Shown piece after piece: positions 477 to 30,532 of a DNA stretch of 32,038 bases; position 1 is the first letter of the stretch, and every line of letters starts with the position of its first letter. Made by a program: the position numbers and the translations under genes. The DNA comes from a virus. Taxonomy: Duplodnaviria > Heunggongvirae > Uroviricota > Caudoviricetes. The notes under the pieces are model-generated. The model did not search any database. It saw nothing but the letters and a program-made list of their open reading frames with translations, and was not told where the DNA came from. The DNA lies in the IMG/VR virus record IMGVR_UViG_2778261509_000010, positions 1 to 32,038 of that record; one strand, given 5' to 3'.

Positions 477-503
477 AAAAAATAAGCCCGTGTAAGGGAG
501 ATT
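477..503. repeat. attL: att core, left copy (27 bp, AAAAAATAAGCCCGTGTAAGGGAGATT)
   Basis: Exact 27-bp direct repeat of 30506-30532; sits just outside the integrase gene. Matches the P2 att core as I recall it. Confidence 0.8.
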
Positions 504-582
504 TAGGGTGTCACCAGTAGGGGCTTTCAACGGTACAATGCGGGTTTGAGCGGCATAAATTACTACTGAAAGCCCTTAAACG

Positions 583-1596
583 TTACTCTACTGTGGACAC
601 TGTGTGGACACTCTCGGCCTCAGTACCACCTCTTAGCGGATTAAGAGAAATGGCGTCCTGAAGGTACTCTGGCGCAAAATGAGCGTAAACCATAGTTTGT
701 TCAATCCGCGTGTGACCTAGTATCCGTTGTAGCGTGATAATACTTCCTCCATTAATCATGAAATGAGTGGCAAAGCTGTGCCTTAGTGCATGTGTGGCTT
801 GCCCCATTGGCAAATCCGGTTTTATTGCTTTCATTGTTCGTCTGAAGCGAGGGTAATCAGCATCAGGGAATAAAAAACCTCGTTTGTTATCCGCGATCAT
901 TTTGGCAACAGCCTCTGAGATCGGGACGGTGCGTGGTTTGTTTGTTTTCGTTTTAACAAACGTGACGCGGTTATGGATGATATTTTCTGCTTTCAAACGA
1001 GCTGCTTCTCCCCAACGTGCTCCAGTACTCAGGCAAAGAATCGCAATCTTTTTATTGTCGCCGTCAAGAGCAGCAAGCAGTAAGGCAATTTCTTCCTGCG
1101 TGAGATAGCCTGTGTCTGGTTTTTCCTCCTTAAGCCTTTTTGTCCCTCTGATAGGGTGCTCACCAAAGAATAACTCCGCTTCAATCAGGGCTGTAAACAT
1201 GCCGCTAATACATGTTAAATCACGATTGATACTCGAAGGTTTAATACCCTGACTTCTTCGGGTGGCGCAGTACTGGCTGATAAGCGATTTCGTAATTTGA
1301 AATGCGCATGGGTCATTCGTTATTTTTGTGAAGATTTCAATTTTTCCAAGATTAGATTTCCCATGCTCTTCGTGTTTACCCTTTAAATCCCACCAGATCT
1401 GTGTCAGCTCCGACAGACGTCGCTTGTCTGTTGGTTTTGATAGCCATTCTTTATTGTGGTGGTTGTACAACGTGTATTTCTCGAAAGCGACAGCTTCGCT
1501 TTTCTTATCAAACTTCCTACGGATGCGTTTTCCATTACGTCCAGTAGGGCGGATGTCCACTTCATATCGACCATCATCGAGTTTTTTGATTGCCAT
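583..1596 (-). CDS. int: Tyrosine integrase (337 aa)
   Basis: ATG at 1596 with GGAGGG Shine-Dalgarno upstream; C-terminal HALRHSFATHF...LGH...TMVYAH catalytic motifs of tyrosine recombinases; adjacent to att core. Confidence 0.95.
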   Translation of the reverse strand: MAIKKLDDGRYEVDIRPTGRNGKRIRRKFDKKSEAVAFEKYTLYNHHNKEWLSKPTDKRRLSELTQIWWDLKGKHEEHGKSNLGKIEIFTKITNDPCAFQITKSLISQYCATRRSQGIKPSSINRDLTCISGMFTALIEAELFFGEHPIRGTKRLKEEKPDTGYLTQEEIALLLAALDGDNKKIAILCLSTGARWGEAARLKAENIIHNRVTFVKTKTNKPRTVPISEAVAKMIADNKRGFLFPDADYPRFRRTMKAIKPDLPMGQATHALRHSFATHFMINGGSIITLQRILGHTRIEQTMVYAHFAPEYLQDAISLNPLRGGTEAESVHTVSTVE

Positions 1597-1711
1597 CAGA
1601 AAACCCTCCGAGTGGTGTGTTTTTTGGCGACTACTAATCGCTTTTTTCGTGGTGGCTGAAATTTAGCCACCAATAGTAGGCACTTGTGATGAATATATTC
1701 ACGATGAATTC

Positions 1712-2011
1712 TTAACCAGTCTTTTGACCGGAGTGGGGCGACGTTGTTTCGTTTTGCCCAAAGTGTGCGAGAGCGGGCGCAATTTGCCCGGACTCAGGAG
1801 CGATCTGATTGGTCATGAACCATAAAGTGTATTTGGTGAATTGTGGGGTCTGCAGGATGTTCATCATGACATCTGTTGGAGGTGTTGAACGACCACTTTC
1901 ATAGTAACTCAGCGTGCCATACGGAACCCCTGTTAAATCAGCAAGTTGTTGTCTGCTCAAATACTCTGATTTTCGCATTAAGACTATCTTCTCGCTTATC
2001 GTGTTTGACAT
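1712..2011 (-). CDS. C: Immunity repressor C (99 aa)
   Basis: 99-aa HTH protein (QQLADLTGVPYGTLSYYESG) transcribed divergently from cox, upstream of int on the same strand. Confidence 0.9.
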   Translation of the reverse strand: MSNTISEKIVLMRKSEYLSRQQLADLTGVPYGTLSYYESGRSTPPTDVMMNILQTPQFTKYTLWFMTNQIAPESGQIAPALAHFGQNETTSPHSGQKTG

Positions 2012-2100
2012 GGTGTTTAGATCTCAATAGTATTTAGTTTAGATGTAGATTGTTCAGTGCTTGGATGTGTGCACTAAAAGGCATTATAAGGCATTAAACG
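2005..2100. promoter_or_regulatory. Pe/Pc lysis-lysogeny switch region with putative C operator direct repeats
   Basis: TTGACA (2005-2010), 17-nt spacer, TAGTAT (2028-2033) reading towards cox; GTTTAGAT direct repeats at 2015-2022 and 2037-2044 flank the -10; perfect TATAAT on the minus strand (complement of 2083-2088) as a candidate Pc -10. Confidence 0.5.
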
Positions 2101-2125
2101 CAATTCATGAGGGCTGGAGGACGAC

Positions 2126-2401
2126 ATGAGCAAGCAAGTAACACTCATGACTGATGCGATTCCTTATCAGGAGTTCGCAAAACTAATAGGAAAATCGACA
2201 GGAGCGGTTCGTCGGATGATCGATAAAGGAAAGCTGCCTGTAATTGATATGACCGATCCACAATCAGCTTCAGGTCGTGCAGGTGAATATTGGGTATACC
2301 TTCCGGCATGGAATAACGGACTAAAACTGGCTTATGAAAGCCGCCCTAAAGAGATTCGTGACGGCTGGTTGATGTGGTTAGGTCTCGGTGAACCACGTTA
2401 A
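2126..2401 (+). CDS. cox: Cox excisionase / transcriptional regulator (91 aa)
   Basis: First gene of the rightward early operon, GGAGG Shine-Dalgarno 6 nt upstream, size and position as for P2 Cox. Confidence 0.9.
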   Translation: MSKQVTLMTDAIPYQEFAKLIGKSTGAVRRMIDKGKLPVIDMTDPQSASGRAGEYWVYLPAWNNGLKLAYESRPKEIRDGWLMWLGLGEPR

Positions 2402-2411
2402 GGAGAACCGT

Positions 2412-2582
2412 ATGAATGAACCTCGTTGTATTGCTCAGTTACTGCGTAACGAAAGCCCCAGGGCGATTGACTTCACCATCACCCACGGTAAGGGGCGTAA
2501 GGGAATCATTATCCGCACCAAAAAACAGAGTCCGTTAAAAAAGGCTCTGACCTTTCTGAAAAGCCGGAGGGTATGGAAATGA
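2412..2582 (+). CDS. Small early protein (P2 orf78-like position)
   Basis: ATG at 2412 preceded by AGGAGA; position between cox and B. Confidence 0.5.
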   Translation: MNEPRCIAQLLRNESPRAIDFTITHGKGRKGIIIRTKKQSPLKKALTFLKSRRVWK

Positions 2583-3079
2583 CAGTGATGACGCTCAATC
2601 TCGTTGAAAAACAGCCAGCAACTATGCGCCGGATAATTGGTAAGCATCTGGCCGTCCCTCGCTGGCAGGAGACATGCGATTATTATAATCAGATGATGGA
2701 ACGCGAACGGCTAACGGTTTGCTTTCATGCGCAGTTAAAACAGCGTCACGCAACGATGCGTTTTGAAGAAATGAACGACGTCGAACGTGAACGACTGGTT
2801 TGTGCAATTGATGAATTGCGTGGGGCATTCTCAAAACGCCGTCAGGTTGGCGCAAGTGAGTATGCATATATTAGTTTTTTAACAGTCAGTCAGCGCCGTA
2901 CTTTATTTATGCACGCACGACTGACAGAAAAAGAATTTAACCAGCCATACTGGCGAATTAATGAGGAATCATGTTACTGGCGTGATGCTTTATTCCGTGC
3001 ATTACGTGAATTATTCAGTCTGTTTGAGTATGCACCGACAATTCTGACATCGGTAAAACCAGAGCAATATCTGCATTAA
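2579..3079 (+). CDS. B: Replication protein B (helicase-loader-like, 166 aa)
   Basis: Position between cox and A; ATG at 2579 is better spaced from GGAGG (2566-2570) than the ATG at 2573. Confidence 0.8.
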   Translation: MTVMTLNLVEKQPATMRRIIGKHLAVPRWQETCDYYNQMMERERLTVCFHAQLKQRHATMRFEEMNDVERERLVCAIDELRGAFSKRRQVGASEYAYISFLTVSQRRTLFMHARLTEKEFNQPYWRINEESCYWRDALFRALRELFSLFEYAPTILTSVKPEQYLH

Positions 3080-3142
3080 GTAATTAACCAGAGTTTTTAA
3101 CGCACTTAATTGTGCGGGGCTTCTTTTTGCCTGGAGAAAGTC

Positions 3143-3367
3143 ATGCATACAGTTTCTGAAAATCAGTGCGGTAAATACGCATTACTGCTGCAACAGGCCA
3201 GAACCGAAGCACAGGCCGATGCAGCGACGCGCTTTTCTTCTCATCTTGACGCCATGATTCACCACATCACAAAGGCGGAGTTATCCAGCGTGGAGATAGT
3301 CGAGCTGCTCAGTCAGGAGTCGGAAAAATTTCACAATATCGGATTGTCTCGCGGGGAGGTGCTTTGA
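3143..3367 (+). CDS. Small early hypothetical protein (orf80-like position)
   Basis: ATG at 3143 with GGAGA Shine-Dalgarno; the ORF-track start at 3110 is a TTG. Confidence 0.5.
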
Positions 3368-3669
3368 TGTCCTGTTCTCGTTCGGTTGTATTACTGAATA
3401 ACGCCTTAAAAATCGCCGTTATGAAAAATGGCGATTTATCTCTTATTCAACTTGGTCTTGATAAAGAAAAACGCGAAATAACTGAGTCTGTTATCGCGAT
3501 TTATCAGAATGAATTAAATCTCCTGTCTGATGTGGTCAATTTACTTGTTAAACGCGCTGTATTTCACAAGCAAATCTCCTCCGTGGATGAACTGACGAAA
3601 TTAACGACAGAAATTGCCAGCTATTGCGCTGATGAATTTAAAAAACTTAACGACAAAAGGAGCTGGTAA
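3367..3669 (+). CDS. Small early hypothetical protein (orf81-like position)
   Basis: ATG at 3367 after a GGGGAGGTG Shine-Dalgarno; translationally coupled neighbours. Confidence 0.5.
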   Translation: MSCSRSVVLLNNALKIAVMKNGDLSLIQLGLDKEKREITESVIAIYQNELNLLSDVVNLLVKRAVFHKQISSVDELTKLTTEIASYCADEFKKLNDKRSW

Positions 3670-3893
3670 TGCCGGACAACGTAGATTTTATTCAGGAACA
3701 ACAGGCTGAATTACTGGAGCGTCAGATTAACGCGGCAAGGGTAAAACATTGCGGTGCTTCTGCGCTGGTTTGCGAAGAGTGTTACGCGCCAATATCTGCT
3801 GCCCGTCGTGCGGCTTATCCGTCAGCCACGCGTTGTGTTTCCTGTCAGTCAGTCTTTGAAGCAAAAAACAAACATTACCGGAGAACGGCATGA
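3669..3893 (+). CDS. TraR/DksA-family C4 zinc-finger protein (74 aa)
   Basis: Cys pairs CEEC...CVSC with the typical spacing of the DksA/TraR zinc finger; start overlaps the upstream stop (TAATG). Confidence 0.7.
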   Translation: MPDNVDFIQEQQAELLERQINAARVKHCGASALVCEECYAPISAARRAAYPSATRCVSCQSVFEAKNKHYRRTA

Positions 3894-4165
3894 GTATTCG
3901 TATTGAAATTGGCGAACGTTATGTCGTTACCAGTGACAGCTTTCAGTTTATTCTCCACGAGAAAAAGAGAGCGGAAAGCGGTAAAAACGCCGGTCAGGAA
4001 TGGCTGGCAGTGGTTGGTTATTACCCGAAATTAAGCCAGCTCGTTTCCGGCCTGATGCATCACGATATTCTGACCGGAAGCGCAAAGTCTTTTGCTGATT
4101 TAAACGCGCAGGTTGAGCAACTCAGCAGGCGTTGTTCAGAGGCTTTTGGCTCATATGGCCGTTAA
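3890..4165 (+). CDS. Small early hypothetical protein (orf83-like position)
   Basis: ATG at 3890 with GGAGA Shine-Dalgarno; overlaps the start of A. Confidence 0.5.
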   Translation: MSIRIEIGERYVVTSDSFQFILHEKKRAESGKNAGQEWLAVVGYYPKLSQLVSGLMHHDILTGSAKSFADLNAQVEQLSRRCSEAFGSYGR

Positions 4166-6455
4166 AGCCTCCGGGCGTTTTGTCCCTCCGTCAGCATTTG
4201 TTGCAGGCACCGGTAAGGCGTTTACCGGTGCTTATGCATGGAACGCGCCACGCGAGGCTGTCGGGCGCGAAAGACCCCTTACACGTGACGAGATGCGTCA
4301 GGTGCAAGGTGTTTTATCCACGATTAACCGCCTGCCTTACTTTTTGCGCTCGCTGTTTACTTCACGCTATGACTACATCCGGCGCAATAAAAGCCCGGTG
4401 CACGGGTTTTATTTCCTCACATCCACTTTTCAGCGTCGTTTATGGCCGCGCATTGAGCGTGTGAATCAGCGCCATGAAATGAACACCGACGCGTCGTTGC
4501 TGTTTCTGGCAGAGCGTGACCACTATGCGCGCCTGCCGGGAATGAATGACAAGGAGCTGAAAAAGTTTGCCGCCCGTATTTCATCGCAGCTTTTCATGAT
4601 GTATGAGGAACTCAGCGATGCCTGGGTGGATGCGCATGGCGAAAAAGAATCGCTGTTTACGGATGAGGCGCAGGCTCACCTCTATGGTCATGTTGCTGGC
4701 GCTGCACGTGCTTTCAATATTTCCCCTCTCTACTGGAAAAAATACCGTAAAGGACAGATGACCACGAGGCAGGCATATTCTGCCATTGCCCGTCTGTTTA
4801 ACGATGAGTGGTGGACTCATCAGCTTAAAGGCCAGCGTATGCGCTGGCATGAGGCGTTACTGATTGCTGTCGGGGAGGTGAATAAAGACCGTTCTCCTTA
4901 TGCCAGTAAACATGCCATTCGTGATGTGCGTGCACGCCGCCAGGCAAATCTGGAATTTCTTAAATCGTGTGACCTTGAAAACAGGGAAACCGGCGAGCGC
5001 ATCGACCTTATCAGTAAGGTGATGGGCAGTATTTCTAATCCTGAAATTCGCCGGATGGAGCTGATGAACACCATTGCCGGTATTGAGCGTTACGCCGCCG
5101 CAGAGGGTGATGTGGGGATGTTTATCACGCTGACCACGCCGTCAAAGTATCACCCGACACGTCAGGTCGGAAAAGGCGAAAGTAAAACCGTCCAGCTTAA
5201 TCACGGCTGGAATGATGAGGCATTTAATCCAAAGGATGCGCAGCGTTATCTCTGCCGTATCTGGAGCCTGATGCGCACGGCATTCAAGGATAATGATTTA
5301 CAGGTCTACGGTTTGCGTGTCGTCGAGCCACACCACGACGGAACGCCGCACTGGCATATGATGCTTTTTTGTAATCCACGCCAGCGTAACCAGATTATCG
5401 AAATCATGCGTCGCTATGCGCTCAAAGAGGATGGCGACGAAAGAGGAGCCGCGCGAAACCGTTTTCAGGCGAAACACCTTAACCGGGGCGGTGCTGCGGG
5501 GTATATCGCGAAATACATCTCAAAAAATATCGACGGATATGCACTGGATGGTCAGCTCGATAATGATACCGGCAGACCGCTGAAAGACACTGCCGCGGCT
5601 GTTACCGCATGGGCGTCAACGTGGCGCATCCCGCAATTTAAAACGGTTGGTCTGCCGACAATGGGGGCTTACCGTGAACTACGCAAATTGCCTCGCGGCG
5701 TCAGCATTGCTGATGAGTTTGACGAGCGCGTCGAGGCTGCACGCGCCGCCGCAGACAGTGGTGATTTTGCGTTGTATATCAGCGCGCAGGGTGGGGCAAA
5801 TGTCCCGCGCGATTGTCAGACTGTCAGGGTCGCCCGTAGCCCGTCGGATGACGTTAACGAGTATGAGGAAGAAGTCGAGAGAGTGGTCGGCATTTACGCG
5901 CCGCATCTCGGCGCGCGTCATATTCATATCACCAGAACGACGGACTGGCGCATTGTGCCGAAAGTTCCGGTCGTTGAGCCTTTGACTTTAAAAAGCGGCA
6001 TCGCCGCGCCTCGGAGTCCTGTCAATAACTGTGGAAAGCTCACCGATGGTGATACTTCGTTACCGGCTCCCACACCTTCTGAACACGCCGCAGCAGTGCT
6101 TAATCTGGTTGATGACGGTGTTATCGAATGGAGTGACCCGGAGGTTGTGAGGGCGCTCAGAGGTGCATTAAAATGCGGACTGAGAACACCAAATCGTCAG
6201 CAAAGAAACGGAAGTCCGTTAAAACCGCATGAAATAGCGCCATCAGCCAGGCTGACCAGGTCGGAACGATTGCAAATTACCCGTATTCGCGTTGATCTTG
6301 CTCAGAACGGTATCAGACCTCAGCGATGGGAGCTTGAGTCGCTGGCGCGTGGGGCAACCGTAAATTATGACGGGAAAAAATTCACGTATCCGGTCGCTGA
6401 TGAGTGGCCGGGATATTCAACTATAACAGAGTGGAATCAATTTGATGACGGGTAA
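4155..6455 (+). CDS. A: Rolling-circle replication initiator A (HUH endonuclease)
   Basis: HUH-like motif PHWHMMLF and paired tyrosines in AGYIAKYISKNIDGY; ATG at 4155 preferred (the ORF-track start at 4113 is a TTG). Confidence 0.9.
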   Translation: MAVKASGRFVPPSAFVAGTGKAFTGAYAWNAPREAVGRERPLTRDEMRQVQGVLSTINRLPYFLRSLFTSRYDYIRRNKSPVHGFYFLTSTFQRRLWPRIERVNQRHEMNTDASLLFLAERDHYARLPGMNDKELKKFAARISSQLFMMYEELSDAWVDAHGEKESLFTDEAQAHLYGHVAGAARAFNISPLYWKKYRKGQMTTRQAYSAIARLFNDEWWTHQLKGQRMRWHEALLIAVGEVNKDRSPYASKHAIRDVRARRQANLEFLKSCDLENRETGERIDLISKVMGSISNPEIRRMELMNTIAGIERYAAAEGDVGMFITLTTPSKYHPTRQVGKGESKTVQLNHGWNDEAFNPKDAQRYLCRIWSLMRTAFKDNDLQVYGLRVVEPHHDGTPHWHMMLFCNPRQRNQIIEIMRRYALKEDGDERGAARNRFQAKHLNRGGAAGYIAKYISKNIDGYALDGQLDNDTGRPLKDTAAAVTAWASTWRIPQFKTVGLPTMGAYRELRKLPRGVSIADEFDERVEAARAAADSGDFALYISAQGGANVPRDCQTVRVARSPSDDVNEYEEEVERVVGIYAPHLGARHIHITRTTDWRIVPKVPVVEPLTLKSGIAAPRSPVNNCGKLTDGDTSLPAPTPSEHAAAVLNLVDDGVIEWSDPEVVRALRGALKCGLRTPNRQQRNGSPLKPHEIAPSARLTRSERLQITRIRVDLAQNGIRPQRWELESLARGATVNYDGKKFTYPVADEWPGYSTITEWNQFDDG

Positions 6456-6597
6456 TCGAATGGAATGATCCGGCGGTCGTGAGGGCGCTCAGAGGTGCAT
6501 TAAAACACGGTCTGAGAATACCAAATCGTCAGCAAAGAAACGGAAGTCCGTTAAAACCGCTTGCATTTGTGCCATCGCGAGGCTGATCAAATCAGGT
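6455..6597. repeat. Decayed direct duplicate of the A gene 3' region (copy of about 6123-6260)
   Basis: Long near-identical runs (GTGAGGGCGCTCAGAGGTGCATTAAAA; CCAAATCGTCAGCAAAGAAACGGAAGTCCGTTAAAACCGC) repeated immediately after the A stop codon. Confidence 0.75.
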
Positions 6598-6684
6598 TTG
6601 TGATAAATTACTAGTATTTATATAGACCTCGCTCAGTATGGCATCACACAGAAGTAATGTAAGCGTGGGGGGCGTGGTGTACCA

Positions 6685-6713
6685 TTGATATACGACGGTC
6701 GAAAATTTACATA
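6685..6713 (+). promoter_or_regulatory. Candidate sigma70 promoter for the cargo membrane gene
   Basis: TTGATA, 17-nt spacer, TACATA upstream of the 6729-7361 ORF; by eye only. Confidence 0.3.
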
Positions 6714-6872
6714 GCCGATTTCCTGTGATTGGTTTTCGTTATGCACTCTTTTCTGAAGAGATTAACTACTGATAGACTCAGGTTGGATGTCAGAATCGCT
6801 ATAGATTTCTTGCTATATATGTATTTTTCAATGAAAATGATCTCTGATTTAAACTGTAGTAAGGTGATTGGT

Positions 6873-7361
6873 ATGGATGGTTTATGGGAAAAAATATCGT
6901 CATATAATATATTTAATAATCTTTTTCCAGGTGCTCTTTTTATTTATCTTCTTGAGAGAATGACGAAGATCGTTTTATCTGGCGATGATTTAATAAAAAA
7001 TGTTGTCCTCTATTATTTTGTTGGCTTAGTCATTGGCCGGATTGGTTCTATCGTATTGGAACCTTTTTTAAAACTATCGCGTTTGATTAAGTTTGCTCCT
7101 TATAAAGATTATGTGTCAGCATGTGGTGTGGATGGAAAAATTGAAACTTTGCAAGAGATTGCGAATATGTATAGGACGATATTTTCAATGTCAATTATTC
7201 TTTTGGCGACATTGTGCGTTGTAGGACGGTTTACTGGCGAGACATATGGCTTATCTAAAATAACGTTGGCGGTTTTTGCTATTTTGTTTGTTGTCTCATA
7301 TATTAAACAAATAAGATACATAATATATAGAGTAAATGCTGTTAATAATAAGCTGCCGTAA
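6873..7361 (+). CDS. Multi-pass inner-membrane protein, cargo gene (about 4 TM segments)
   Basis: ATG at 6873 with AAGGTG Shine-Dalgarno 6 nt upstream; ORF is open from a TTG at 6729 (ATG at 6741 also possible). Hydrophobic segments FPGALFIYLL, VVLYYFVGLVIGRIGSIVL, IFSMSIILLATLCVVG, ITLAVFAILFVVSYI; strongly AT-rich. Confidence 0.6.
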   Translation: MDGLWEKISSYNIFNNLFPGALFIYLLERMTKIVLSGDDLIKNVVLYYFVGLVIGRIGSIVLEPFLKLSRLIKFAPYKDYVSACGVDGKIETLQEIANMYRTIFSMSIILLATLCVVGRFTGETYGLSKITLAVFAILFVVSYIKQIRYIIYRVNAVNNKLP

Positions 7362-7371
7362 GGCAGCTTTT
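7351..7371. terminator. Bidirectional intrinsic terminator between convergent cargo genes
   Basis: Hairpin AGCTGCC-GTAA-GGCAGCT overlapping the plus-gene stop, followed by TTTT on plus and an AT-rich tract on minus. Confidence 0.5.
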
Positions 7372-7374
7372 GAA

Positions 7375-8466
7375 TTATTCTTCGGTTCTATAGTTACTAA
7401 TGTATGATCGTGGAGTGGCTGTTTTCCATCCTGCCCTTTCAGGAGCATTATAAAAATGGTACTTACCAAGCCCCTCGGTGGCGATAACTTTCGCTCCTCG
7501 TCGAGTAAAGGCATTAATTACAGCTTGATGGGGATGTTTATCTGAACCTGGGGCACATGATACAAATGCGGTTATCTCCCTTTTTTCGCCTTCATTTACA
7601 ATGTTACCAACAAGTTTATCGAGAACATCAGGGCCTACATTTCTCCGGCTACCATGATGAGGTACTTGAATGAATCTTAATGATTCTTTATTAATGTATT
7701 GGGAGGCTTGATCTAAGGCTGTTATACCAGCATCGCCAGTGAACACTAACGTTCTTCCATCAATCTCAAGTTTCAAAATGACACTTGAGTTATTTTGTGC
7801 CGAGGTGGTATCGTCATTATCAATACCTTCATCAGTAAACCATTCAGCAACGTAATCAATAAATTTCTTCGTTTTTTCAACTACAGACTCAAAGACTGCT
7901 TTTAGTACTTCAAATCCAGCTGTATCCTCAGCTTTTTTGGGCATTCTTGCGAAATCAGGTATTAGAGTCTCATAGTAAGATTGGGTTGGCCCGATAACAA
8001 CCAGAGTAGCATTATCCCAGGTCATTCCTTGAAAAGGCTCTTTTATTTCAATTCCTTTTTTTTCCGCTAATTTGACAGCGTCATAAGCTTTTTGTAAGTT
8101 TTCTTTCATTCGATTTGCAATACTGGCATCAGTTATCCTGCCATCTGCAAACTCACTTGCGAGACCTTGATTATGTTCCCAAGGCTTATGAATCCAAAAC
8201 TCTTTTACTTCTGCATTTTCTAGAACAGATGTAAGTCCACCGACGTGGTCACCATCGGGGTGTGTGGAGATAAGCAAGTCAATAGTTTTTGTGCGGTAGT
8301 ATTTTTCAATATGCTCAATGACTTGTTCTCCGGTGCTGGCATATCCTGCATCAATAACGACAACTTTTTGTTCATCTCTTGAACCATGTAGGTTTCCCCA
8401 TCTGATGCAGATCGCATCGCCGCTTTTTTTTTCGCCAACAGCTAGAAAATCAATTTCGTAACCCAT
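7375..8466 (-). CDS. ComEC-like metallo-beta-lactamase-fold hydrolase (putative nuclease), cargo gene (363 aa)
   Basis: MBL motifs STHPDGDHVGG (residues ~67-77), VPHHGS and KHPH, resembling the ComEC C-terminal / Lactamase_B_2 pattern; ATG at 8466 with AAGGA Shine-Dalgarno; AT-rich. Confidence 0.8.
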   Translation of the reverse strand: MGYEIDFLAVGEKKSGDAICIRWGNLHGSRDEQKVVVIDAGYASTGEQVIEHIEKYYRTKTIDLLISTHPDGDHVGGLTSVLENAEVKEFWIHKPWEHNQGLASEFADGRITDASIANRMKENLQKAYDAVKLAEKKGIEIKEPFQGMTWDNATLVVIGPTQSYYETLIPDFARMPKKAEDTAGFEVLKAVFESVVEKTKKFIDYVAEWFTDEGIDNDDTTSAQNNSSVILKLEIDGRTLVFTGDAGITALDQASQYINKESLRFIQVPHHGSRRNVGPDVLDKLVGNIVNEGEKREITAFVSCAPGSDKHPHQAVINAFTRRGAKVIATEGLGKYHFYNAPERAGWKTATPRSYISNYRTEE

Positions 8467-8628
8467 TCCATATCCTTATTAAACTGTGAATTAACATGAA
8501 TCCAAGATGTTAAATCATATGGATAATAACGCAACTTTTCCGCAGTAAATACTGTGAGCGGATTTAATCTCGTCAGAACTAAAAGCAAGTAGTGTGACGA
8601 GGGACAATGAGTCTCTTTGGGGCGTTGG

Positions 8629-9168
8629 CTATGACACTGACGCAACCAGATTAACGCCGTGAGTCAGCAGATTTGTAATCACACCGGCAATGACCCCAGG
8701 AGTCCCATCTTTCACCGCACTGATCACTTTATCCCCCATCGTTTCATTTCCACCAAGCACCTCGGGTTTTTTGTTAAGAACTGTGAGCGCTTTTTCAGTA
8801 AGTCGAACATCGTAAAAATACGACTGATGGTCTGTGTTGTACTGAATGTACCCGTTTTCACAGAGAAAATTGAATGTACCTTCAACCACACTACGCAACT
8901 GATTTAACACTTTCATTTCTGGTGAGTTAAGTTGGTCAAAGTAGTCATCAGGTAGCGCGGCGTTAAATTTGTCGTAGTTAATCACCTGTGGTACGGGAAA
9001 ATTTTCCCATAGTACTGCAAAGATTTCCGCCGTTTGTTGGTTAAATAAATCGAGATTTTTCGACATGCAAAATTCCATTTCTTTTGATAATGAGTGGGTT
9101 AAACGCTGGACGAGGCAGATTACCACTCTGGCACAAAACAATGATCTTAGTTCACGCGAAGTTGACAT
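8629..9168 (-). CDS. Hypothetical cargo protein with Gly-rich hydrophobic C-terminus (start uncertain, 145-179 aa)
   Basis: ORF open from ATG at 9168; alternative ATG at 9066 (MSKNLDLF...). C-terminal GTPGVIAGVITNLLTHGVNLVASVS looks like a membrane-interacting tail. No family recognised. Confidence 0.55.
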   Translation of the reverse strand: MSTSRELRSLFCARVVICLVQRLTHSLSKEMEFCMSKNLDLFNQQTAEIFAVLWENFPVPQVINYDKFNAALPDDYFDQLNSPEMKVLNQLRSVVEGTFNFLCENGYIQYNTDHQSYFYDVRLTEKALTVLNKKPEVLGGNETMGDKVISAVKDGTPGVIAGVITNLLTHGVNLVASVS

Positions 9169-9766: not shown

Positions 9767-9770
9767 ATGT

Positions 9771-17078: not shown

Positions 17079-17092
17079 ACGGAGTAAACACC

Positions 17093-19997: not shown

Positions 19998-20001
19998 AAC
20001 C

Positions 20002-23241: not shown

Positions 23242-23678
23242 TGAGTTATTTTTACAGTCCATCAAGAAATGCATTTTATAACAGTGAACTGAAATCTGAT
23301 TATTACGATGCTCTCGATGCGTGGCCGGATGACTGTATTGAGGTAAGTGATGCAGTCTATCAGGAGTTTTATCTTGGTTATCGGGAAGGGTACAAAATGG
23401 TTGCAGGCACTGATAACCAGCCATCATGGGAAGAACGTCCACCATTGACCCATGAGGAACAGGTGGAACAGGCAGAAATGATGAAACAGATGCGCATTAA
23501 TGAGGCTAACAACCTGATTAATGAAAAACAATGGCCATCAAAATTACAGCTTGGCAGGCTGAGCGAATTAGAAAAGAATAGTTTTAATGCTGTACTGGAT
23601 TACCTTGATGCACTGGATAAAGTTGATATTAGTACGGCACCTGATATTGACTGGCCGGTAAGTAGCTTCAACAAATGA
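23241..23678 (+). CDS. G: Tail fibre assembly chaperone (145 aa)
   Basis: ATG at 23241 overlapping the H stop (TGATG); position. Confidence 0.75.
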   Translation: MSYFYSPSRNAFYNSELKSDYYDALDAWPDDCIEVSDAVYQEFYLGYREGYKMVAGTDNQPSWEERPPLTHEEQVEQAEMMKQMRINEANNLINEKQWPSKLQLGRLSELEKNSFNAVLDYLDALDKVDISTAPDIDWPVSSFNK

Positions 23679-23801
23679 TTGCAGTTGTCTGAATAAATTT
23701 TCTGGTTGGTGTTGTACCAGGTGTTAGCCAACCTGGATAAATAGATTGCAATAATAGCTCAACAGAAAATGCACTCACCCATTAACCACGGAGTTAAACG
23801 G

Positions 23802-24992
23802 ATGAGTGACTATCATCACGGCGTGCAGGTGCTGGAGATTAACGACGGCACCCGCGTCATTTCCACTGTATCCACTGCCATTGTCGGCATGGTCTGCACG
23901 GCCAGCGATGCGGATGCGGAAACCTTCCCCCTCAATAAACCGGTGCTGATTACCAATGTGCAGAGCGCAATTGCAAAGGCCGGTAAAAAAGGCACGCTGG
24001 CGGCATCGTTGCAGGCCATCGCCGACCAGTCAAAACCGGTCACCGTTGTCGTGCGTGTGGAAGACGGCACCGGCGACGACGAGGAAACGAAACTCGCGCA
24101 GACCGTTTCCAATATCATCGGCACCACTGACGAAAACGGTCAGTACACCGGACTGAAAGCCCTGCTGGCGGCGGAGTCGGTAACCGGTGTTAAACCGCGT
24201 ATTCTTGGTGTGCCGGGGCTGGATACCAAAGAGGTGGCTGTTGCACTGGCATCAGTCTGTCAGAAGCTGCGCGCTTTCGGATATATCAGCGCATGGGGCT
24301 GTAAAACCATTTCCGAGGTGAAAGCCTACCGCCAGAATTTCAGCCAGCGTGAGCTGATGGTCATCTGGCCGGATTTCCTCGCATGGGATACGGTCACCAG
24401 TACCACCGCCACCGCGTATGCCACCGCCCGTGCGCTGGGTCTGCGTGCCAAAATCGACCAGGAGCAGGGCTGGCATAAAACGCTGTCCAACGTCGGGGTA
24501 AACGGTGTTACCGGCATCAGCGCATCTGTATTCTGGGATTTGCAGGAGTCCGGCACCGATGCTGACCTGCTTAACGAGTCAGGCGTCACTACGCTGATTC
24601 GCCGCGACGGTTTCCGATTCTGGGGTAACCGTACCTGCTCTGATGACCCGCTGTTCCTCTTTGAAAACTACACCCGCACCGCGCAGGTGCTGGCCGACAC
24701 GATGGCTGAGGCGCACATGTGGGCGGTGGACAAGCCCATCACTGCAACGCTGATTCGCGACATTGTTGACGGCATCAATGCCAAATTCCGTGAGCTGAAA
24801 ACAAACGGCTATATCGTGGATGCGACCTGCTGGTTCAGCGAAGAATCCAACGATGCGGAAACCCTCAAGGCCGGAAAATTGTATATCGACTACGACTATA
24901 CACCGGTGCCTCCTCTCGAAAACCTGACCCTGCGCCAGCGTATTACCGATAAATACCTGGCAAATCTGGTCACCTCGGTTAACAGCAATTAA
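23802..24992 (+). CDS. FI: Tail sheath protein (396 aa)
   Basis: ATG at 23802 with GGAG Shine-Dalgarno (MSDYHHGVQVLEIN...); size and position. Confidence 0.9.
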   Translation: MSDYHHGVQVLEINDGTRVISTVSTAIVGMVCTASDADAETFPLNKPVLITNVQSAIAKAGKKGTLAASLQAIADQSKPVTVVVRVEDGTGDDEETKLAQTVSNIIGTTDENGQYTGLKALLAAESVTGVKPRILGVPGLDTKEVAVALASVCQKLRAFGYISAWGCKTISEVKAYRQNFSQRELMVIWPDFLAWDTVTSTTATAYATARALGLRAKIDQEQGWHKTLSNVGVNGVTGISASVFWDLQESGTDADLLNESGVTTLIRRDGFRFWGNRTCSDDPLFLFENYTRTAQVLADTMAEAHMWAVDKPITATLIRDIVDGINAKFRELKTNGYIVDATCWFSEESNDAETLKAGKLYIDYDYTPVPPLENLTLRQRITDKYLANLVTSVNSN

Positions 24993-25004
24993 GGAGCCTG
25001 ACCG

Positions 25005-25523
25005 ATGGCAATGCCGCGCAAACTCAAGTTAATGAACGTCTTTCTGAACGGCTACAGCTATCAGGGCGTTGCAAAGTCCGTCACGCTGCCAAAACTGACC
25101 CGTAAGCTCGAAAACTATCGCGGTGCGGGGATGAACGGCAGCGCACCGGTAGACCTCGGCCTTGATGACGATGCGCTGTCAATGGAGTGGTCGCTCGGTG
25201 GCTTCCCGGATTCGGTTATCTGGGAGCTTTACGCCGCAACCGGTGTGGATGCCGTGCCGATTCGTTTTGCAGGCTCTTACCAGCGCGACGATACCGGCGA
25301 AACGGTGGCCGTCGAAGTGGTCATGCGTGGACGTCAGAAAGAAATCGACACCGGCGAGGGCAAACAGGGAGAAGACACCGAGTCGAAAATCTCCGTGGTC
25401 TGCACCTATTTCCGGCTGACGATGGACGGCAAGGAGCTGGTCGAAATCGACACCATCAACATGATTGAGAAGGTGAACGGCGTCGACCGGCTGGAGCAAC
25501 ACCGCCGCAATATCGGCCTGTGA
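25005..25523 (+). CDS. FII: Tail tube protein (172 aa)
   Basis: Position and size; AAGGAG Shine-Dalgarno. Confidence 0.9.
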   Translation: MAMPRKLKLMNVFLNGYSYQGVAKSVTLPKLTRKLENYRGAGMNGSAPVDLGLDDDALSMEWSLGGFPDSVIWELYAATGVDAVPIRFAGSYQRDDTGETVAVEVVMRGRQKEIDTGEGKQGEDTESKISVVCTYFRLTMDGKELVEIDTINMIEKVNGVDRLEQHRRNIGL

Positions 25524-25579
25524 TTTTCATCCGGTCAGCCAGGCTGACCGGTTAACCCTGATTCAGAAGTGAGAAAACC

Positions 25580-25855
25580 ATGAACAAAGAAAATGTCATT
25601 ACCCTGGACAATCCGGTCAAACGTGGTGAGCAGGTTATCGAACAGGTCACACTGATGAAACCCAATGCCGGGACGCTGCGCGGTGTCAGTCTGGCAGCGG
25701 TCGCGAACTCCGAAGTCGATGCACTGATTAAGGTGCTGCCGCGCATGACGGCACCGATGCTGACCGAGCAGGAGGTCGCCGCGCTGGAACTGCCTGACCT
25801 TGTGGCGCTGGCCGGTAAGGTGGTCGGTTTTTTGTCTCCGAACTCGGTGCAGTGA
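25580..25855 (+). CDS. E: Tail assembly chaperone E (91 aa)
   Basis: Small acidic protein directly upstream of the tape measure gene; contains slippery G GTT TTT TG near its 3' end. Confidence 0.8.
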   Translation: MNKENVITLDNPVKRGEQVIEQVTLMKPNAGTLRGVSLAAVANSEVDALIKVLPRMTAPMLTEQEVAALELPDLVALAGKVVGFLSPNSVQ

Positions 25856-26007
25856 CGTTTCCGAAAAATCTCTCGGTCGATGACCTGATGGCAGATGTGG
25901 CAGTGATATTTCACTGGCCGCCATCAGAACTGTATCCCATGAGCCTGACCGAACTCATCACATGGCGCGAAAAGGCGCTCCGGCGAAGCGGAAACACGAA
26001 TGAGTAA
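25580..26007 (+). CDS. E': E+E' fusion produced by -1 programmed ribosomal frameshift (shift at about 25826-25834)
   Basis: The -1 frame is open from the T6 slippery site to a TAA at 26005-26007, overlapping the T start; conserved chaperone-frameshift arrangement of tailed phages. Confidence 0.65.
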
Positions 26008-28447
26008 CAATGTAAAATTACAGGTATTGCTCAGGGCTGTTGACCAGGCATCCCGCCCGTTTAAATCCATCCGCACAGCGAGCAAATCGCTGTCGGGGGA
26101 TATCCGGGAAACACAAAAATCACTGCGCGAGCTGAACGGTCACGCATCCCGTATTGAGGGATTTCGCAAGACCAGTGCACAGCTCGCCGTGACTGGTCAT
26201 GCACTTGAAAAGGCACGGCAGGAGGCCGAAGCCCTTGCCACACAGTTTAAAAACACCGAACGTCCGACACGTGCTCAGGCGAAAGTGCTGGAATCCGCAA
26301 AGCGTGCGGCGGAGGACTTACAGGCGAAATATAACCGCCTGACGGATTCCGTTAAACGCCAGCAGCGGGAACTGGCCGTTGTGGGAATTAATACCCGCAA
26401 TCTTGCACATGATGAGCAGGGACTGAAAAACCGTATCAGTGAAACCACCGCACAGCTTAACCGTCAGCGTGACGCGCTGGCGCGTGTCAGTGCGCAACAG
26501 GCAAAACTTAACGCAGTAAAACAGCGTTATCAGGCAGGCAAGGAACTGGCCGGAAATATGGCCTCAGTGGGCGCTGCCGGTGTGGGGATTGCGGCGGCGG
26601 GAACGATGGCCGGAGTTAAGTTGCTGATGCCCGGTTATGAGTTTGCGCAGAAAAACTCAGAATTGCAGGCCGTGCTCGGAGTGGCAAAAGACTCCGCCGA
26701 AATGACCGCACTACGCAAACAGGCGCGCCAGCTCGGCGACAATACCGCCGCTTCGGCGGATGATGCGGCCGGTGCACAGATAATCATCGCGAAAGCGGGT
26801 GGGGATGTTGATGCCATTCAGGCGGCAACGCCGGTCACGCTGAATATGGCGCTGGCGAACCGCCGCACGATGGAAGAAAACGCCGCCCTGCTGATGGGGA
26901 TGAAATCCGCCTTTCAGCTTTCAAACGATAAGGTCGCTCATATCGGGGATGTTCTCTCCATGACGATGAACAAAACCGCCGCCGATTTTGACGGCATGAG
27001 CGATGCGCTGACCTATGCCGCACCTGTGGCAAAAAATGCCGGTGTCAGCATTGAAGAAACCGCCGCAATGGTCGGGGCGCTGCATGATGCAAAAATTACC
27101 GGTTCAATGGCGGGGACGGGAAGCCGTGCCGTGTTAAGCCGCCTGCAGGCACCGACGGGAAAAGCATGGGATGCACTCAAAGAGCTTGGTGTGAAAACCT
27201 CAGACAGCAAGGGAAACACCCGGCCAATATTTACCATTCTGAAAGAAATGCAGGCCAGTTTTGAGAAAAACCGGCTCGGTACTGCCCAGCAGGCTGAATA
27301 CATGAAAACTATTTTCGGGGAGGAGGCCAGCTCAGCCGCCGCCGTGCTGATGACTGCCGCCTCAACCGGAAAGCTGGACAAACTGACCGCTGCGTTTAAA
27401 GCCTCAGACGGGAAGACCGCCGAGCTGGTAAATATCATGCAGGACAACCTCGGCGGTGACTTTAAAGAGTTTCAGTCCGCTTATGAGGCGGTGGGGACTG
27501 ACCTGTTTGACCAGCAGGAAGGCGTGCTGCGTAAGCTCACGCAGACGGCCACAAAGTATGTGTTAAAACTCGACGGCTGGATCCAGAAAAACAAATCACT
27601 GGCATCAACCATCGGCCTCATTGTCGGTGGTGCACTGGCGCTGATTGGTGTCATCGGTGCCATTGGTCTTGTAGCCTGGCCGGTTATCACCGGCATCAAT
27701 GCCATTATCGCGGCAGCAGGCGCAATGGGGGCAATCTTCACGACGGTTAGCAGTGCTGTTATGACGGCCATCGGGGCGATTAGCTGGCCGGTTGTGGCCG
27801 TGGTGGCCGCCATTGTCGCCGGGGCGTTGCTTATCCGTAAATACTGGGAGCCTGTCAGCGCATTCTTTGGCGGTGTGGTTGAAGGGCTGAAAGCGGCATT
27901 TGCGCCGGTGGGGGAACTGTTCACGCCACTTAAGCCGCTGTTTGACTGGCTGGGTGAAAAGTTACAGGCCGCGTGGCAGTGGTTTAAAAACCTGATTGCC
28001 CCGGTTAAAGCCACCCAGGACACCCTGAACCGTTGCCGTGACACGGGCGTCATGTTCGGGCAGGCACTGGCTGACGCGCTGATGCTGCCGCTTAATGCGT
28101 TCAACAAACTGCGCAGCGGTATTGACTGGGTACTGGAAAAACTCGGTGTTATCAACAAAGAGTCAGACACACTTGACCAGACCGCCGCAAGGACTCATGC
28201 CGCCACGTATGGCACCGGTGGTTATATTCCGGCGACCAGCTCTTATGCAGGCTATCAGGCTTATCAGCCGGTCACGGCACCGGCTGGCCGCTCTTATGTG
28301 GACCAGAGTAAAAACGAATATCACATCAGCCTGACGGGTGGTACTGCGCCGGGGACACAGCTTGACCGCCAGTTACAGGATGCACTCGAAAAATACGAGC
28401 GGGATAAACGTGCGCGCGCCCGTGCCAGCATGATGCATGACGGTTAA
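26000..28447 (+). CDS. T: Tail tape measure protein (815 aa)
   Basis: Long coiled-coil N-terminal region, Ala/Gly-rich hydrophobic central segments; position. Confidence 0.9.
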   Translation: MSNNVKLQVLLRAVDQASRPFKSIRTASKSLSGDIRETQKSLRELNGHASRIEGFRKTSAQLAVTGHALEKARQEAEALATQFKNTERPTRAQAKVLESAKRAAEDLQAKYNRLTDSVKRQQRELAVVGINTRNLAHDEQGLKNRISETTAQLNRQRDALARVSAQQAKLNAVKQRYQAGKELAGNMASVGAAGVGIAAAGTMAGVKLLMPGYEFAQKNSELQAVLGVAKDSAEMTALRKQARQLGDNTAASADDAAGAQIIIAKAGGDVDAIQAATPVTLNMALANRRTMEENAALLMGMKSAFQLSNDKVAHIGDVLSMTMNKTAADFDGMSDALTYAAPVAKNAGVSIEETAAMVGALHDAKITGSMAGTGSRAVLSRLQAPTGKAWDALKELGVKTSDSKGNTRPIFTILKEMQASFEKNRLGTAQQAEYMKTIFGEEASSAAAVLMTAASTGKLDKLTAAFKASDGKTAELVNIMQDNLGGDFKEFQSAYEAVGTDLFDQQEGVLRKLTQTATKYVLKLDGWIQKNKSLASTIGLIVGGALALIGVIGAIGLVAWPVITGINAIIAAAGAMGAIFTTVSSAVMTAIGAISWPVVAVVAAIVAGALLIRKYWEPVSAFFGGVVEGLKAAFAPVGELFTPLKPLFDWLGEKLQAAWQWFKNLIAPVKATQDTLNRCRDTGVMFGQALADALMLPLNAFNKLRSGIDWVLEKLGVINKESDTLDQTAARTHAATYGTGGYIPATSSYAGYQAYQPVTAPAGRSYVDQSKNEYHISLTGGTAPGTQLDRQLQDALEKYERDKRARARASMMHDG

Positions 28448-28461
28448 GGAGGTGACGAAAA

Positions 28462-28941
28462 ATGATGCTCGCGTTAGGTATGTTTGTTTTTATGCGCCAG
28501 ACGCTGCCACACCAGACCATGCAGCGTGAATCAGATTATCGCTGGCCGTCAAATTCCCGTATCGGTAAACGGGATGCCTTTCAGTTTCTCGGTGTTGGCG
28601 ATGAAAACATCACGCTTGCCGGTGTGCTTTATCCTGAACTGACCGGCGGAAAGCTGACGATGACCACGCTCAGGCTGATGGCAGAGGAAGGCCGGGCGTG
28701 GCCGTTGCTGGATGGCACCGGCATGATTTACGGCATGTATGTCATCAGCAAGGTGAGTGAAACAGGGAGTATTTTCTTTGCAGACGGCACACCCCGGAAA
28801 ATTGATTTTACGCTGTCGCTCACCCGCGTTGATGAATCACTGGCCGCGCTTTATGGCGATATCGGTAAACAGGCGGAATCGCTTATCGGTAAGGCTGGCA
28901 GTATGGCGACTAAATTCACGGGTATGACGGGGGCGGGATAA
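28462..28941 (+). CDS. U: Tail protein U (tail terminator, 159 aa)
   Basis: AAGGAGG Shine-Dalgarno; position and size. Confidence 0.85.
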   Translation: MMLALGMFVFMRQTLPHQTMQRESDYRWPSNSRIGKRDAFQFLGVGDENITLAGVLYPELTGGKLTMTTLRLMAEEGRAWPLLDGTGMIYGMYVISKVSETGSIFFADGTPRKIDFTLSLTRVDESLAALYGDIGKQAESLIGKAGSMATKFTGMTGAG

Positions 28942-30104
28942 TGCTGGATGCACTGACATTTGATGCAGGCAGTACGCTGACGCCGGATTACATGCTGATG
29001 CTCGACAGCAGGGATATTACCGGCAATATCAGCGACCGTCTGATGAGCATGACCCTGACGGATAACCGGGGCTTTGAGGCTGACCAGCTTGATATTGAAC
29101 TGAACGATGCCGACGGGCAGGTCGGGCTGCCGGTTCGTGGCGCTGTCCTGACGGTGTATATCGGCTGGAAAGGTTTTGCCCTGGTATGTAAAGGGAAATT
29201 TACCGTTGATGAGGTTGAACACCGGGGCGCGCCGGATGTGGTCACCATCCGCGCCCGGAGTGCAGATTTTCGCGGGACGCTCAATTCCCGCCGTGAAGGC
29301 TCCTGGCATGATACCACGCTCGGTGCGATTGTTGAGGCGATAGCCTCCCGTAACAGGCTGGAAGCCAGTGTCGCTCCGTCACTGGCAGGAATTAAAATCC
29401 CGCACATCGACCAGTCGCAGGAGTCTGATGCGAAATTCCTGACCCGTCTTGCAGAACGCAACGGCGGTGAGGTCTCGGTAAAAATGGGAAAACTGTTGTT
29501 TCTCAAAGCGGGGCAGGGGGTGACGGCCAGTGGTAAAAAAATCCCGCAGATTACCATCACCCGCAGCGACGGCGACCGTCATCATTTTGCGATTGCTGAC
29601 CGTGGAGCTTACACCGGCGTAACGGCAAAGTGGTTACACACCAAAGACCCGAAGCCGCAAAAGCAGAAGGTAAAACTGAAACGCAAAAAGAAAGAGAAAC
29701 ACCTGCGCGCACTGGAGCACCCGAAAGCGAAACCAGTCACGCAGAAGAAAGCCCCTAAAGTACCGGAAGCGCGCGAAGGTGAATACATGGCCGGTGAGGC
29801 TGATAACGTTTTTGCCCTGACCACGGTATATGCCACGAAAGCGCAGGCCATGCGCGCCGCTCAGGCGAAGTGGGATAAACTGCAACGGGGCGTTGCGGAG
29901 TTCTCCATCAGCCTGGCTACCGGTCGGGCAGATATTTACACGGAAGCACCGGTTAAAGTGTCAGGCTTTAAGCGCGTCATAGACGAGCAGGACTGGACAA
30001 TCACTAAGGTGACACATTTTCTGAATAATAGCGGCTTCACGACGTCCTTAGAGCTTGAGGTCAGGCTTTCTGATGTGGAGTATGAAACAGAAGATGATGA
30101 GTGA
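28941..30104 (+). CDS. D: Tail protein D (387 aa)
   Basis: Start overlaps the U stop (TAATG); Lys-rich low-complexity linker KPQKQKVKLKRKKKEK. Confidence 0.85.
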   Translation: MLDALTFDAGSTLTPDYMLMLDSRDITGNISDRLMSMTLTDNRGFEADQLDIELNDADGQVGLPVRGAVLTVYIGWKGFALVCKGKFTVDEVEHRGAPDVVTIRARSADFRGTLNSRREGSWHDTTLGAIVEAIASRNRLEASVAPSLAGIKIPHIDQSQESDAKFLTRLAERNGGEVSVKMGKLLFLKAGQGVTASGKKIPQITITRSDGDRHHFAIADRGAYTGVTAKWLHTKDPKPQKQKVKLKRKKKEKHLRALEHPKAKPVTQKKAPKVPEAREGEYMAGEADNVFALTTVYATKAQAMRAAQAKWDKLQRGVAEFSISLATGRADIYTEAPVKVSGFKRVIDEQDWTITKVTHFLNNSGFTTSLELEVRLSDVEYETEDDE

Positions 30105-30185
30105 TGTGTTTTGTTTATCTGTTTGTTTTATAAGGATAAATCAACTAAAATGGCACCATCGACAAAACCGGAAGAGGTGCTCGCG

Positions 30186-30404
30186 ATGTTTCATTGTCCT
30201 TTATGCCAGCATGCCGCACATGCGCGTACAAGCCGCTATATCACTGACACGACAAAAGAGCGTTATCACCAGTGCCAGAACGTGAATTGCAGCGCCACGT
30301 TCATCACCTATGAGTCGGTACAGAGATACATCGTGAAGCCGGGAGAAGTCCACGCCGTAAGGCCGCACCCGTTACCGTCAGGGCAGCAAATTATGTGGAT
30401 GTAA
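30186..30404 (+). CDS. ogr: Ogr late-gene transcriptional activator (C4 zinc finger, 72 aa)
   Basis: ATG at 30186 (MFHCPLCQH...CQNVNC); last phage gene before att, as in P2. Confidence 0.85.
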   Translation: MFHCPLCQHAAHARTSRYITDTTKERYHQCQNVNCSATFITYESVQRYIVKPGEVHAVRPHPLPSGQQIMWM

Positions 30405-30414
30405 TTACAAACAG

Positions 30415-30441
30415 AAAGCCCCTCAGTCGAGGGGCTTTTTT
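30415..30441 (+). terminator. Intrinsic terminator after ogr
   Basis: Hairpin AGCCCCTC-AGTC-GAGGGGCT followed by T6. Confidence 0.75.
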
Positions 30442-30505
30442 GTCGATGTGGTCAATGTGTGGACGTGACCAGAAATAAATCCTTTTATTTCATTGAATTA
30501 CGCGT

Positions 30506-30532
30506 AAAAAATAAGCCCGTGTAAGGGAGATT
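30506..30532. repeat. attR: att core, right copy (27 bp)
   Basis: Exact direct repeat of 477-503, downstream of the ogr terminator. Confidence 0.8.

Follow-up and report, generated by a model that had tools for sequence, protein, structure and literature searches.

We analyzed a 32,038-nucleotide stretch of DNA, positions 1 to 32,038 of the IMG/VR virus record IMGVR_UViG_2778261509_000010 (hereafter the window, meaning this whole stretch), and are highly confident that it holds an intact-looking prophage of the P2 type (Peduovirus), 30,029 bp long when excised, that would have been inserted by its own integrase at locI, the attachment site favored by P2 in E. coli, and is likely viable. A P2 prophage at locI is already known textbook biology, and Barreiro and Haggard-Ljungquist reportedly sequenced the site in 1992. 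Mildly new here are the combination of modules, a candidate defense cassette, and a fossil attR arm in the flanking host DNA. The practical value of the result is one of annotation: a P2-type prophage at locI is named, its boundaries are fixed to the base, and the adjacent small RNA (sRNA) gene cyaR is intact. The anatomy, the sequence identities, the empty site, and the junction positions set out below were observed directly.

The element is delimited by AAAAAATAAGCCCGTGTAAGGGAGATT, a 27-mer that occurs exactly twice in the window, at 477–503 and 30506–30532, both on the plus strand, with no further match at three or fewer mismatches and no match in 100 dinucleotide-preserving shuffles. The left copy lies 79 nt beyond the int stop codon and the right copy 67 nt beyond the ogr terminator (30415–30438, placed by homology with the P2 annotation), exactly where an earlier reading of the letters without database searches (the sequence-only reading) had put them. 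That reading had also taken the repeats for the att cores of a complete-looking prophage, and this is borne out: the annotated attP core of P2 (24356–24382 in NC_001895) has the same 27 letters, and in the blastn map the homology with P2 breaks off at both core edges. Because P2 homology begins and ends at the two repeat copies, the 27-mer is identified as the attP core. It is also, letter for letter, the core common to P2 attP and locI (PMC3931495), an identity that the sequence-only reading, although it had read the repeat correctly, did not recognize. At 30.0 kb, the excised genome falls within the range of deposited Peduovirus genomes (∼29.2–33.6 kb). The two junctions and the recombination functions that belong to them are as follows.

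477 to 503, plus strand: attL core, 27 bp; exact repeat, identical to the P2 attP core and to the locI/attP core of the literature.
520 to 617, no strand assigned: Cox-binding region and Int P' arm, with TGTGGAC repeats at 592 and 603; homologous to P2 24399–24496 with one mismatch.
583 to 1596, minus strand: int, tyrosine integrase of 337 residues; 99.7% identical to P2 Int over 337 residues.
2126 to 2401, plus strand: cox, excisionase and Pc repressor; 100% identical to P2 Cox.
30415 to 30505, no strand assigned: ogr terminator, Int P arm (TGTGGTC at 30447, TGTGGAC at 30458), and IHF site; homologous to P2 24265–24357.
30506 to 30532, plus strand: attR core, 27 bp, doubling as the 3' terminator half of cyaR; exact repeat, Rfam match, and fold.

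To reconstruct attP, the phage side of attR (30405–30532) was joined to the phage side of attL (504–640). Placed by P2 homology and by TGTGGWC repeats, the Int arm sites (P and P'), IHF site, and Cox boxes all flank the core in this sequence, which is 97.8% identical to P2 attP and differs from it by five substitutions in the spacer that separates the IHF site from the core and by one in the Cox region. Save for those five substitutions, the region of the ogr terminator, P arm, and IHF site is identical to that of P2, and the P2 remnant of E. coli K-12 has the same spacer variant apart from 1 nt. Contiguous attP sequences 98.8–99.4% identical to the reconstruction are found in the isolated Peduovirus phages P22H4, P22H1, 9W, P24C9, and 10W, the records of P22H4, P22H1, and 9W standing at 99.4%. 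Integration is best pictured as the work of the phage's own tyrosine integrase, which would recombine attP with locI within the shared 27-bp identity and leave one core at each junction.

The host DNA on either side identifies the locus.

1 to 318, plus strand: yegR, left host flank; an open reading frame (ORF) of 105 codons whose matching sequence RefSeq annotates as yegR in many genomes.
30509 to 30594, minus strand: cyaR (RyeE) sRNA gene, complete; Rfam RF00112.
30677 to 32038, minus strand: yegQ (trhP), right host flank; Peptidase_U32 and its C-terminal domain, RefSeq annotation of matching sequence.

The Peptidase_U32 match and the RefSeq annotation agree with the earlier statement that the flanking U32 peptidase gene marks the yegQ locus of E. 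coli. According to PMC3931495, which cites Barreiro & Haggard-Ljungquist 1992, the attB preferred in E. coli C is locI, which in K-12 is filled by a P2 remnant. The earlier statement that K-12 carries the ogrK remnant at this same locus was likewise correct, the order in K-12 being yegR, a truncated attL core, D', ogrK, the core, cyaR, and yegQ. The sequence-only reading thus had the locus right, but it overlooked a complete cyaR gene, the 3' end of which is the core. This gene scores 100.7 bits against RF00112 (gathering score, 47), with model positions 1–85 of 85 aligned, and its minimum-free-energy fold has an 11-bp terminator stem; within that terminator, the att core runs from the final two bases of the 5' stem strand through the loop and the entire 3' strand to the U-tail. 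The prophage is thus integrated into the terminator of an sRNA gene, and cyaR at attR is restored base for base because the phage brings an identical copy of the core. A scan of the whole window at Rfam gathering thresholds found no RNA gene besides cyaR, and the minus-strand fold of the attL region (470–560) was no better than those of shuffles (z = 0.11), giving no evidence of a new terminator there. Papers on sRNAs have reportedly noted that cyaR/ryeE lies beside the P2 site; our literature search did not confirm this and found no paper linking cyaR with overlap of the P2 attachment site.

To examine the unoccupied site, we used a 508-nt query, in which a single core joins the two flanks, against 5426 complete E. 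coli genomes. The empty-site join was present at 80% or more of query coverage in 4562 of them, and strain BE2-5 matched it at 100% identity. In this interval, BE2-5, Nissle 1917, and K-12 have one copy of the 27-mer each. Comparison with prophage-free genomes of the same species, which had been proposed as a check on the sequence-only reading, thus returned a single core at the locus. The attL junction, made up of host flank, core, and the 3' end of a P2-type int, was found in 811 of the 5426 genomes; therefore ∼15% of complete E. coli genomes carry a P2-type prophage at locI.

Between the two cores, the element is P2 in all but its accessory modules, which the sequence-only reading, having recognized a prophage, had not named as such. 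In a megablast comparison with 50,697 phage records, positions 477–24000 matched P2 (NC_001895) with 97.3% identity over 76% of their length. By blastn, four collinear blocks with a total of ∼24.5 kb match P2 at 95.3–97.8%.

476 to 6435: P2 24355–30314, 97.8% identical.
9583 to 18953: P2 1–9369, 97.6% identical.
19018 to 21339: P2 10308–12629, 95.3% identical.
23724 to 30532: P2 17572–24382, 97.0% identical.

A tblastn search with all P2 proteins gave a single full-length match for each essential gene (essentiality according to the P2 record). The P2 gene set and order are kept (Q P O N M L X Y K R S V W J I H G FI FII E E' T U D ogr int C cox B A), with H and G present as another allele (by Pfam); apart from this swapped module, the P2 structural genes are found in single, full-length pieces at 81.7–100% identity, most of them above 95%. 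The conserved genes and sites are the following.

2412 to 4165, plus strand: early genes orf78, B, orf80, orf81, orf82, and orf83; 95.9–100% versus P2, full length.
4155 to 6455, plus strand: A, replication initiator (nickase); P2 A residues 1–760 at 97.6%.
9583 to 9601, plus strand: cos, 19-nt cohesive end; exact match to P2 cos, GGCGAGGCGGGGAAAGCAC.
9771 to 12577, minus strand: Q (portal) and P (large terminase); 99.4 and 100% versus P2, full length.
12641 to 12671, no strand assigned: Ogr activator site common to the pO and pP late promoters; 31 of 31 positions identical to P2 3057–3087.
12751 to 18951, plus strand: O operon, with O, N, M, L, X, Y (holin), K (endolysin), lysA, lysB, lysC, R, and S; 95.7–100%, full length except lysC.
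17786 to 18055, plus strand: lysC (Rz1-like spanin), seven codons short; stop at codon 90 (18053–18055).
19018 to 21514, plus strand: V, W, J, and I (baseplate); V, W, and J at 96.7–99.1%, I at 81.7% with a different, longer C terminus.
23802 to 30104, plus strand: F operon, with FI, FII, E, E+E', T, U, and D; 98.1–100%, all full length.
30186 to 30404, plus strand: ogr, late-gene activator; 100% versus P2 Ogr, NCBIfam PRK09678 at 177.6 bits.

In gene A, the homology with P2 stops at 6435, 5 nt ahead of the P2 stop codon, and cos is placed, as in P2, between the accessory slot and Q. The slippery heptamer TTTTTTG of E/E' is kept at 25828–25834, the −1 (E') frame is open to 26007, and the E+E' product differs from that of P2 at two residues. 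Thus, of the earlier claim of intact genes, the part concerning the structural genes and the programmed frameshift stands, whereas the part concerning the lysis cassette has to be amended: Y, K, lysA, and lysB are full length, but lysC is seven codons short. No frameshift or stop codon was found in an essential gene, and the stop in lysC lies in a gene that is non-essential according to the P2 record. Because the functions for immunity, excision, replication, packaging, head, tail, lysis, and late control are undisrupted, a viable phage would be the most likely state of this prophage.

Several observations nevertheless count against viability. The nonsense codon at position 90 of lysC removes the last seven residues, so that lysis efficiency could be affected, and the lysC stretch concerned (141 nt) has no 100% match among deposited phages. 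The distal tail fiber and its chaperone, whose functions are putative, have no close relative among the 50,697 phage records. The entire pV region departs from P2, as does some of the pF activator site, and of these two variants only that of pV has been seen in isolated phages. The exact mosaic occurs in none of the 5426 complete E. coli genomes, the best of which covers 93% of it at 97.9%, and inactivating missense changes may exist in genes that look intact. The unmatched lysC allele, the novel fiber tip and chaperone, and the altered pF site would all fit a prophage that was rightly integrated at locI and looks complete but is defective (cryptic) and gives no infectious progeny, as would the decayed P2 remnants known to build up at this locus, namely that of K-12 and the fossil arm described below. 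We regard this alternative as unlikely. The genes marked essential in the P2 record show no frameshift, insertion sequence element, or truncation; conservation extends to cos, the att arms, the frameshift signal, and the switch region; and the identity to P2 over the conserved blocks, ∼97–98%, carries no sign of decay. The predicted Ogr-dependent late promoters give a mixed picture: Ogr (100%) and the pO/pP site (exact) are those of P2, the pV region is a variant, and at pF the upstream half-site, TTGTACCAGGTGTTAGCCAACC, is related to that of P2 but different.

The reading of a viable P2-type prophage also bears on how the phage would be released, a question to which the repressor region speaks.

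1712 to 2011, minus strand: C immunity repressor, 99 residues; 100% identical to P2 C.

Among temperate phages, P2 is the standard example of one that is not inducible. In the window, the Pe/Pc (C–cox) switch region (2012–2125) differs from that of P2 at 4 of 114 positions. In the lysogen, C would repress Pe; derepression, either spontaneous and rare or forced by a P4-type antirepressor, would then allow Cox, Int, and IHF to excise the genome. Inactivation of P2 C by the P4 antirepressor is known (PMC2995052), and SOS-inducible phages have been contrasted with non-inducible ones that use spontaneous induction (PMC7708051). The sequence-only reading had suggested that the element may be inducible and had proposed a check with mitomycin C; some P2-like prophages do respond to this agent, such as the one of E. 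coli HS, in which induction needs Tum and LexA cleavage (PMC11195241). We consider it very improbable that the present prophage is SOS-inducible by mitomycin C or ultraviolet light. Both C and Cox are 100% identical to those of P2. Searches of the window by tblastn with Tum, CI, CII, and Apl of phage 186 gave nothing credible, the best Tum match (E = 0.02) extending over 25 residues on the wrong strand inside the tail genes. No CTGT-N8-ACAG LexA box occurs in the window, in which a single relaxed match lies inside gene D. A 186-type or Tum-type inducible phage was rejected as a candidate on the same grounds. Because C and Cox are of the P2 type and neither Tum, a 186-type CI, nor a credible LexA box was found, induction by SOS or mitomycin C is not expected, and we infer a release that would be rare and spontaneous; the suggestion of inducibility is therefore not upheld. 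Finally, the idea that the 27-bp repeat reflects chance or a host duplication without site-specific recombination is rejected: no shuffle yields a match, the copies lie where P2 homology ends and match the annotated attP core, and the unoccupied site has one copy.

The differences from P2 all lie within known variable slots. Where P2 has orf91, tin, and old, a three-gene cassette with matches to PDC-M48 and a remnant of gene A stand here (6436–9553); orf30 and Z/fun of P2 are absent; the C terminus of I, together with H and G, belongs to another tail-fiber module; and, besides the five spacer substitutions and the shorter lysC, the genome measures 30.0 kb versus 33.6 kb for P2. In other respects (the core; the layout of arms, IHF site, and Cox boxes; cos; gene order; Int at 99.7%; C, Cox, and Ogr at 100%), the element resembles P2 at locI of E. 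coli C, with about 97–98% nucleotide identity over the shared ∼76%. The combination of P2 immunity and integrase, a PDC-M48-like cassette, and an unusual fiber tip is absent as such from the 5426 genomes and the 50,697 phage records. Such a mosaic is expected for this phage group and is not a new kind of system.

The slot between gpA and gpQ, next to cos, is a defense hotspot of P2-like phages (PMC9122126). The features that occupy it here, and the junction that replaces orf30, are listed below.

6442 to 6753, plus strand: A', degenerate duplicate of the last ∼100 codons of gene A, bordering the cargo; matches P2 29988–30137 at 84% of nucleotides.
6873 to 7361, plus strand: cargo gene 1, PDC-M48A-like hydrophobic protein of 162 residues; PADLOC PDC-M48A E = 1.7e-50, phrog_11864, 162-residue coding sequence in strain 5444.
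7375 to 8466, minus strand: cargo gene 2, PDC-M48B-like hydrolase of 363 residues with a metallo-β-lactamase (MBL) fold; PADLOC PDC-M48B E = 7.4e-101, Pfam Lactamase_B E = 6.8e-12.
8629 to 9066, minus strand: cargo gene 3, upstream of the MBL gene, ∼145 residues; phrog_2266 E = 2.1e-58, 145-residue coding sequence in strain 5444.
18952 to 19017, no strand assigned: short S–V spacer without orf30, containing the pV region; stands in place of P2 9370–10307.

A' directly follows the intact gene A, and tblastn returned its fragments, for A residues 656–758, in two different frames; it is probably a recombination scar of module exchange. The PDC-M48A and PDC-M48B profile matches are adjacent, and the two genes are convergent, not co-oriented. 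Cargo gene 2 also has weaker matches to the MBL models of LmuA and Avs1a, cargo gene 3 has no match in Pfam, PADLOC, or NCBIfam, and a literature search found no paper on PDC-M48. The cassette is present at 80% or more coverage in 23 of the 5426 complete E. coli genomes. In strain 5444, the same cassette, including A', is found at 99.9% in a P2-like prophage that adjoins pflA and has a different integrase, and because of this second setting, the cassette is regarded as an exchangeable module. The three genes may form a functional, as yet uncharacterized anti-phage system that is passed on as a unit among P2-like phages whose integrases differ. Isolated Peduovirus phages do not have this cassette at high identity, the nearest being 12W, D8, 11W, and P24E6b at ∼73%. 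As a separate observation, the strain 5444 prophage (35112–38766 of the retrieved locus) carries opposed fragments of tail-fiber and assembly genes beside a gene annotated "recombinase family protein," with H annotated as partial; this segment looks like an invertible host-range segment.

Isolated phages commonly have the orf30-less S–V junction: a query made from it is covered to 80% or more by 53 phage records, and the 12 matches listed are at 98.5–99.6%. It is shared by the isolated Peduovirus phages P22H1, P22H4, 9W, 10W, P24C9, fiAA91-ss, and PhiR44_1, which match positions 477–24000 at 97.3–97.5% over 76–77%. None of them carries the tail-fiber tip of the present element, which belongs to the following module.

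21511 to 23678, plus strand: H-type tail fiber (576 residues) and assembly protein (longest ORF, 23208–23678), a swapped host-range module; Pfam Phage_tail_fib, Phage_fiber_2, Gp53-like_C, and Caudo_TAP.

The segment swapped relative to P2 extends from 21340 to 23723 and takes in the C terminus of I, H, and G. H resembles its P2 counterpart at the N terminus only (54.6% over 207 residues). The best phage matches of the distal two-thirds of the fiber together with the assembly protein (22130–23678) are to phage 186 K, at 72% over 29% of the query, and to a Hafnia phage, at ∼36%; apart from 186 K, relatives of the fiber tip reach at most 36% identity over ∼70% of the query. To judge from these searches, the distal fiber would represent a host-range module that has no counterpart among isolated phages.

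Two known systems are instructive for the site itself. The cryptic remnant of K-12 (yegZ/D'–ogrK, between yegR and cyaR–yegQ) shares with the present prophage the locus, the orientation, the attR arm, and the left flank with the fossil arm. In the remnant, the first 18 nt of the attL core are fused to the last ∼213 nt of D, which are followed by ogrK, the P arm, the full core, cyaR, and yegQ; int through most of D is deleted, whereas the whole prophage is present here. The K-12 remnant is a deletion derivative of exactly this arrangement. Phage 186 (Eganvirus) follows the principle known from phages that target tRNA genes: its genome includes the 3' end of a gene for a small structured RNA (tRNA ileY), and integration restores that gene. 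Its late genes are homologous to those here, with int 36.7% identical. It differs in its tRNA target, its CI, cII, tum, and LexA-controlled operon, and its SOS inducibility via Tum; the target here is an sRNA terminator, and the repressor is a P2-type C.

A further trace of P2-like phages lies in the host DNA just outside attL.

416 to 476, no strand assigned: fossil attR arm, a decayed copy of the P arm and ogr terminator; local alignment to 30428–30477, core excluded.

The score of this alignment, from which the core was excluded, was reached by 0 of 2000 shuffles. The flank with the fossil arm is the same in BE2-5, Nissle, and K-12 and is thus present at unoccupied sites also. In Escherichia sp. 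MOD1-EC7003, a longer fossil was found (∼590–660 of the retrieved locus) that includes the stretch of the IHF site and equals the phage arm in 52 of 74 aligned columns, a result again reached by 0 of 2000 shuffles. A distant blastn search of the left flank (319–476) against phages matched two records only, beside the prophage end in each, and these matches look like included host flank.

We also scanned one genome per species for exact matches to the core, a design that gives no measure of core conservation. In Escherichia, Shigella, Enterobacter hormaechei, and at least 10 Kluyvera species, the exact core always stands next to the cyaR body, and the Kluyvera species and E. hormaechei thereby offer a perfect P2 attB. 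Most Kluyvera and both Enterobacter representatives are without the fossil arm; in K. intermedia and in a record labeled E. coli ECDA1023, a divergent P2-like attR arm is found there instead, and in E. ruysiae, both junctions of a P2-type prophage were seen. The simplest reading of this distribution would be that an Escherichia ancestor was lysogenized at cyaR and that the prophage was then deleted down to its attR arm, of which process the K-12 remnant would be a younger repeat. If this is true, a phage is the source of the DNA that directly follows the cyaR terminator in all E. coli. Taken jointly, the two proposals, that the cassette may be a functional anti-phage module and, separately, that the "empty" locI may be an attR scar left by an ancient P2-like prophage, are put forward tentatively, as plausible but short of probable. 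The fossil arm and the exact core in cyaR of Kluyvera and Enterobacter bear on sRNA 3' ends as phage landing pads and are of modest evolutionary interest.

Two smaller features of this flank were also seen. In strains of the Nissle type, the yegR stop codon is immediately followed by an extra AT-rich insert of ∼170 bp, which lies upstream of the fossil arm (∼388–560 of the retrieved Nissle locus). At 417–426, 51 nt upstream of the attL core and just after a hairpin at ∼382–414, the core's 3' end recurs exactly over 10 nt, AAGGGAGATT; this copy could be the remnant of an older core or of the ogr terminator.

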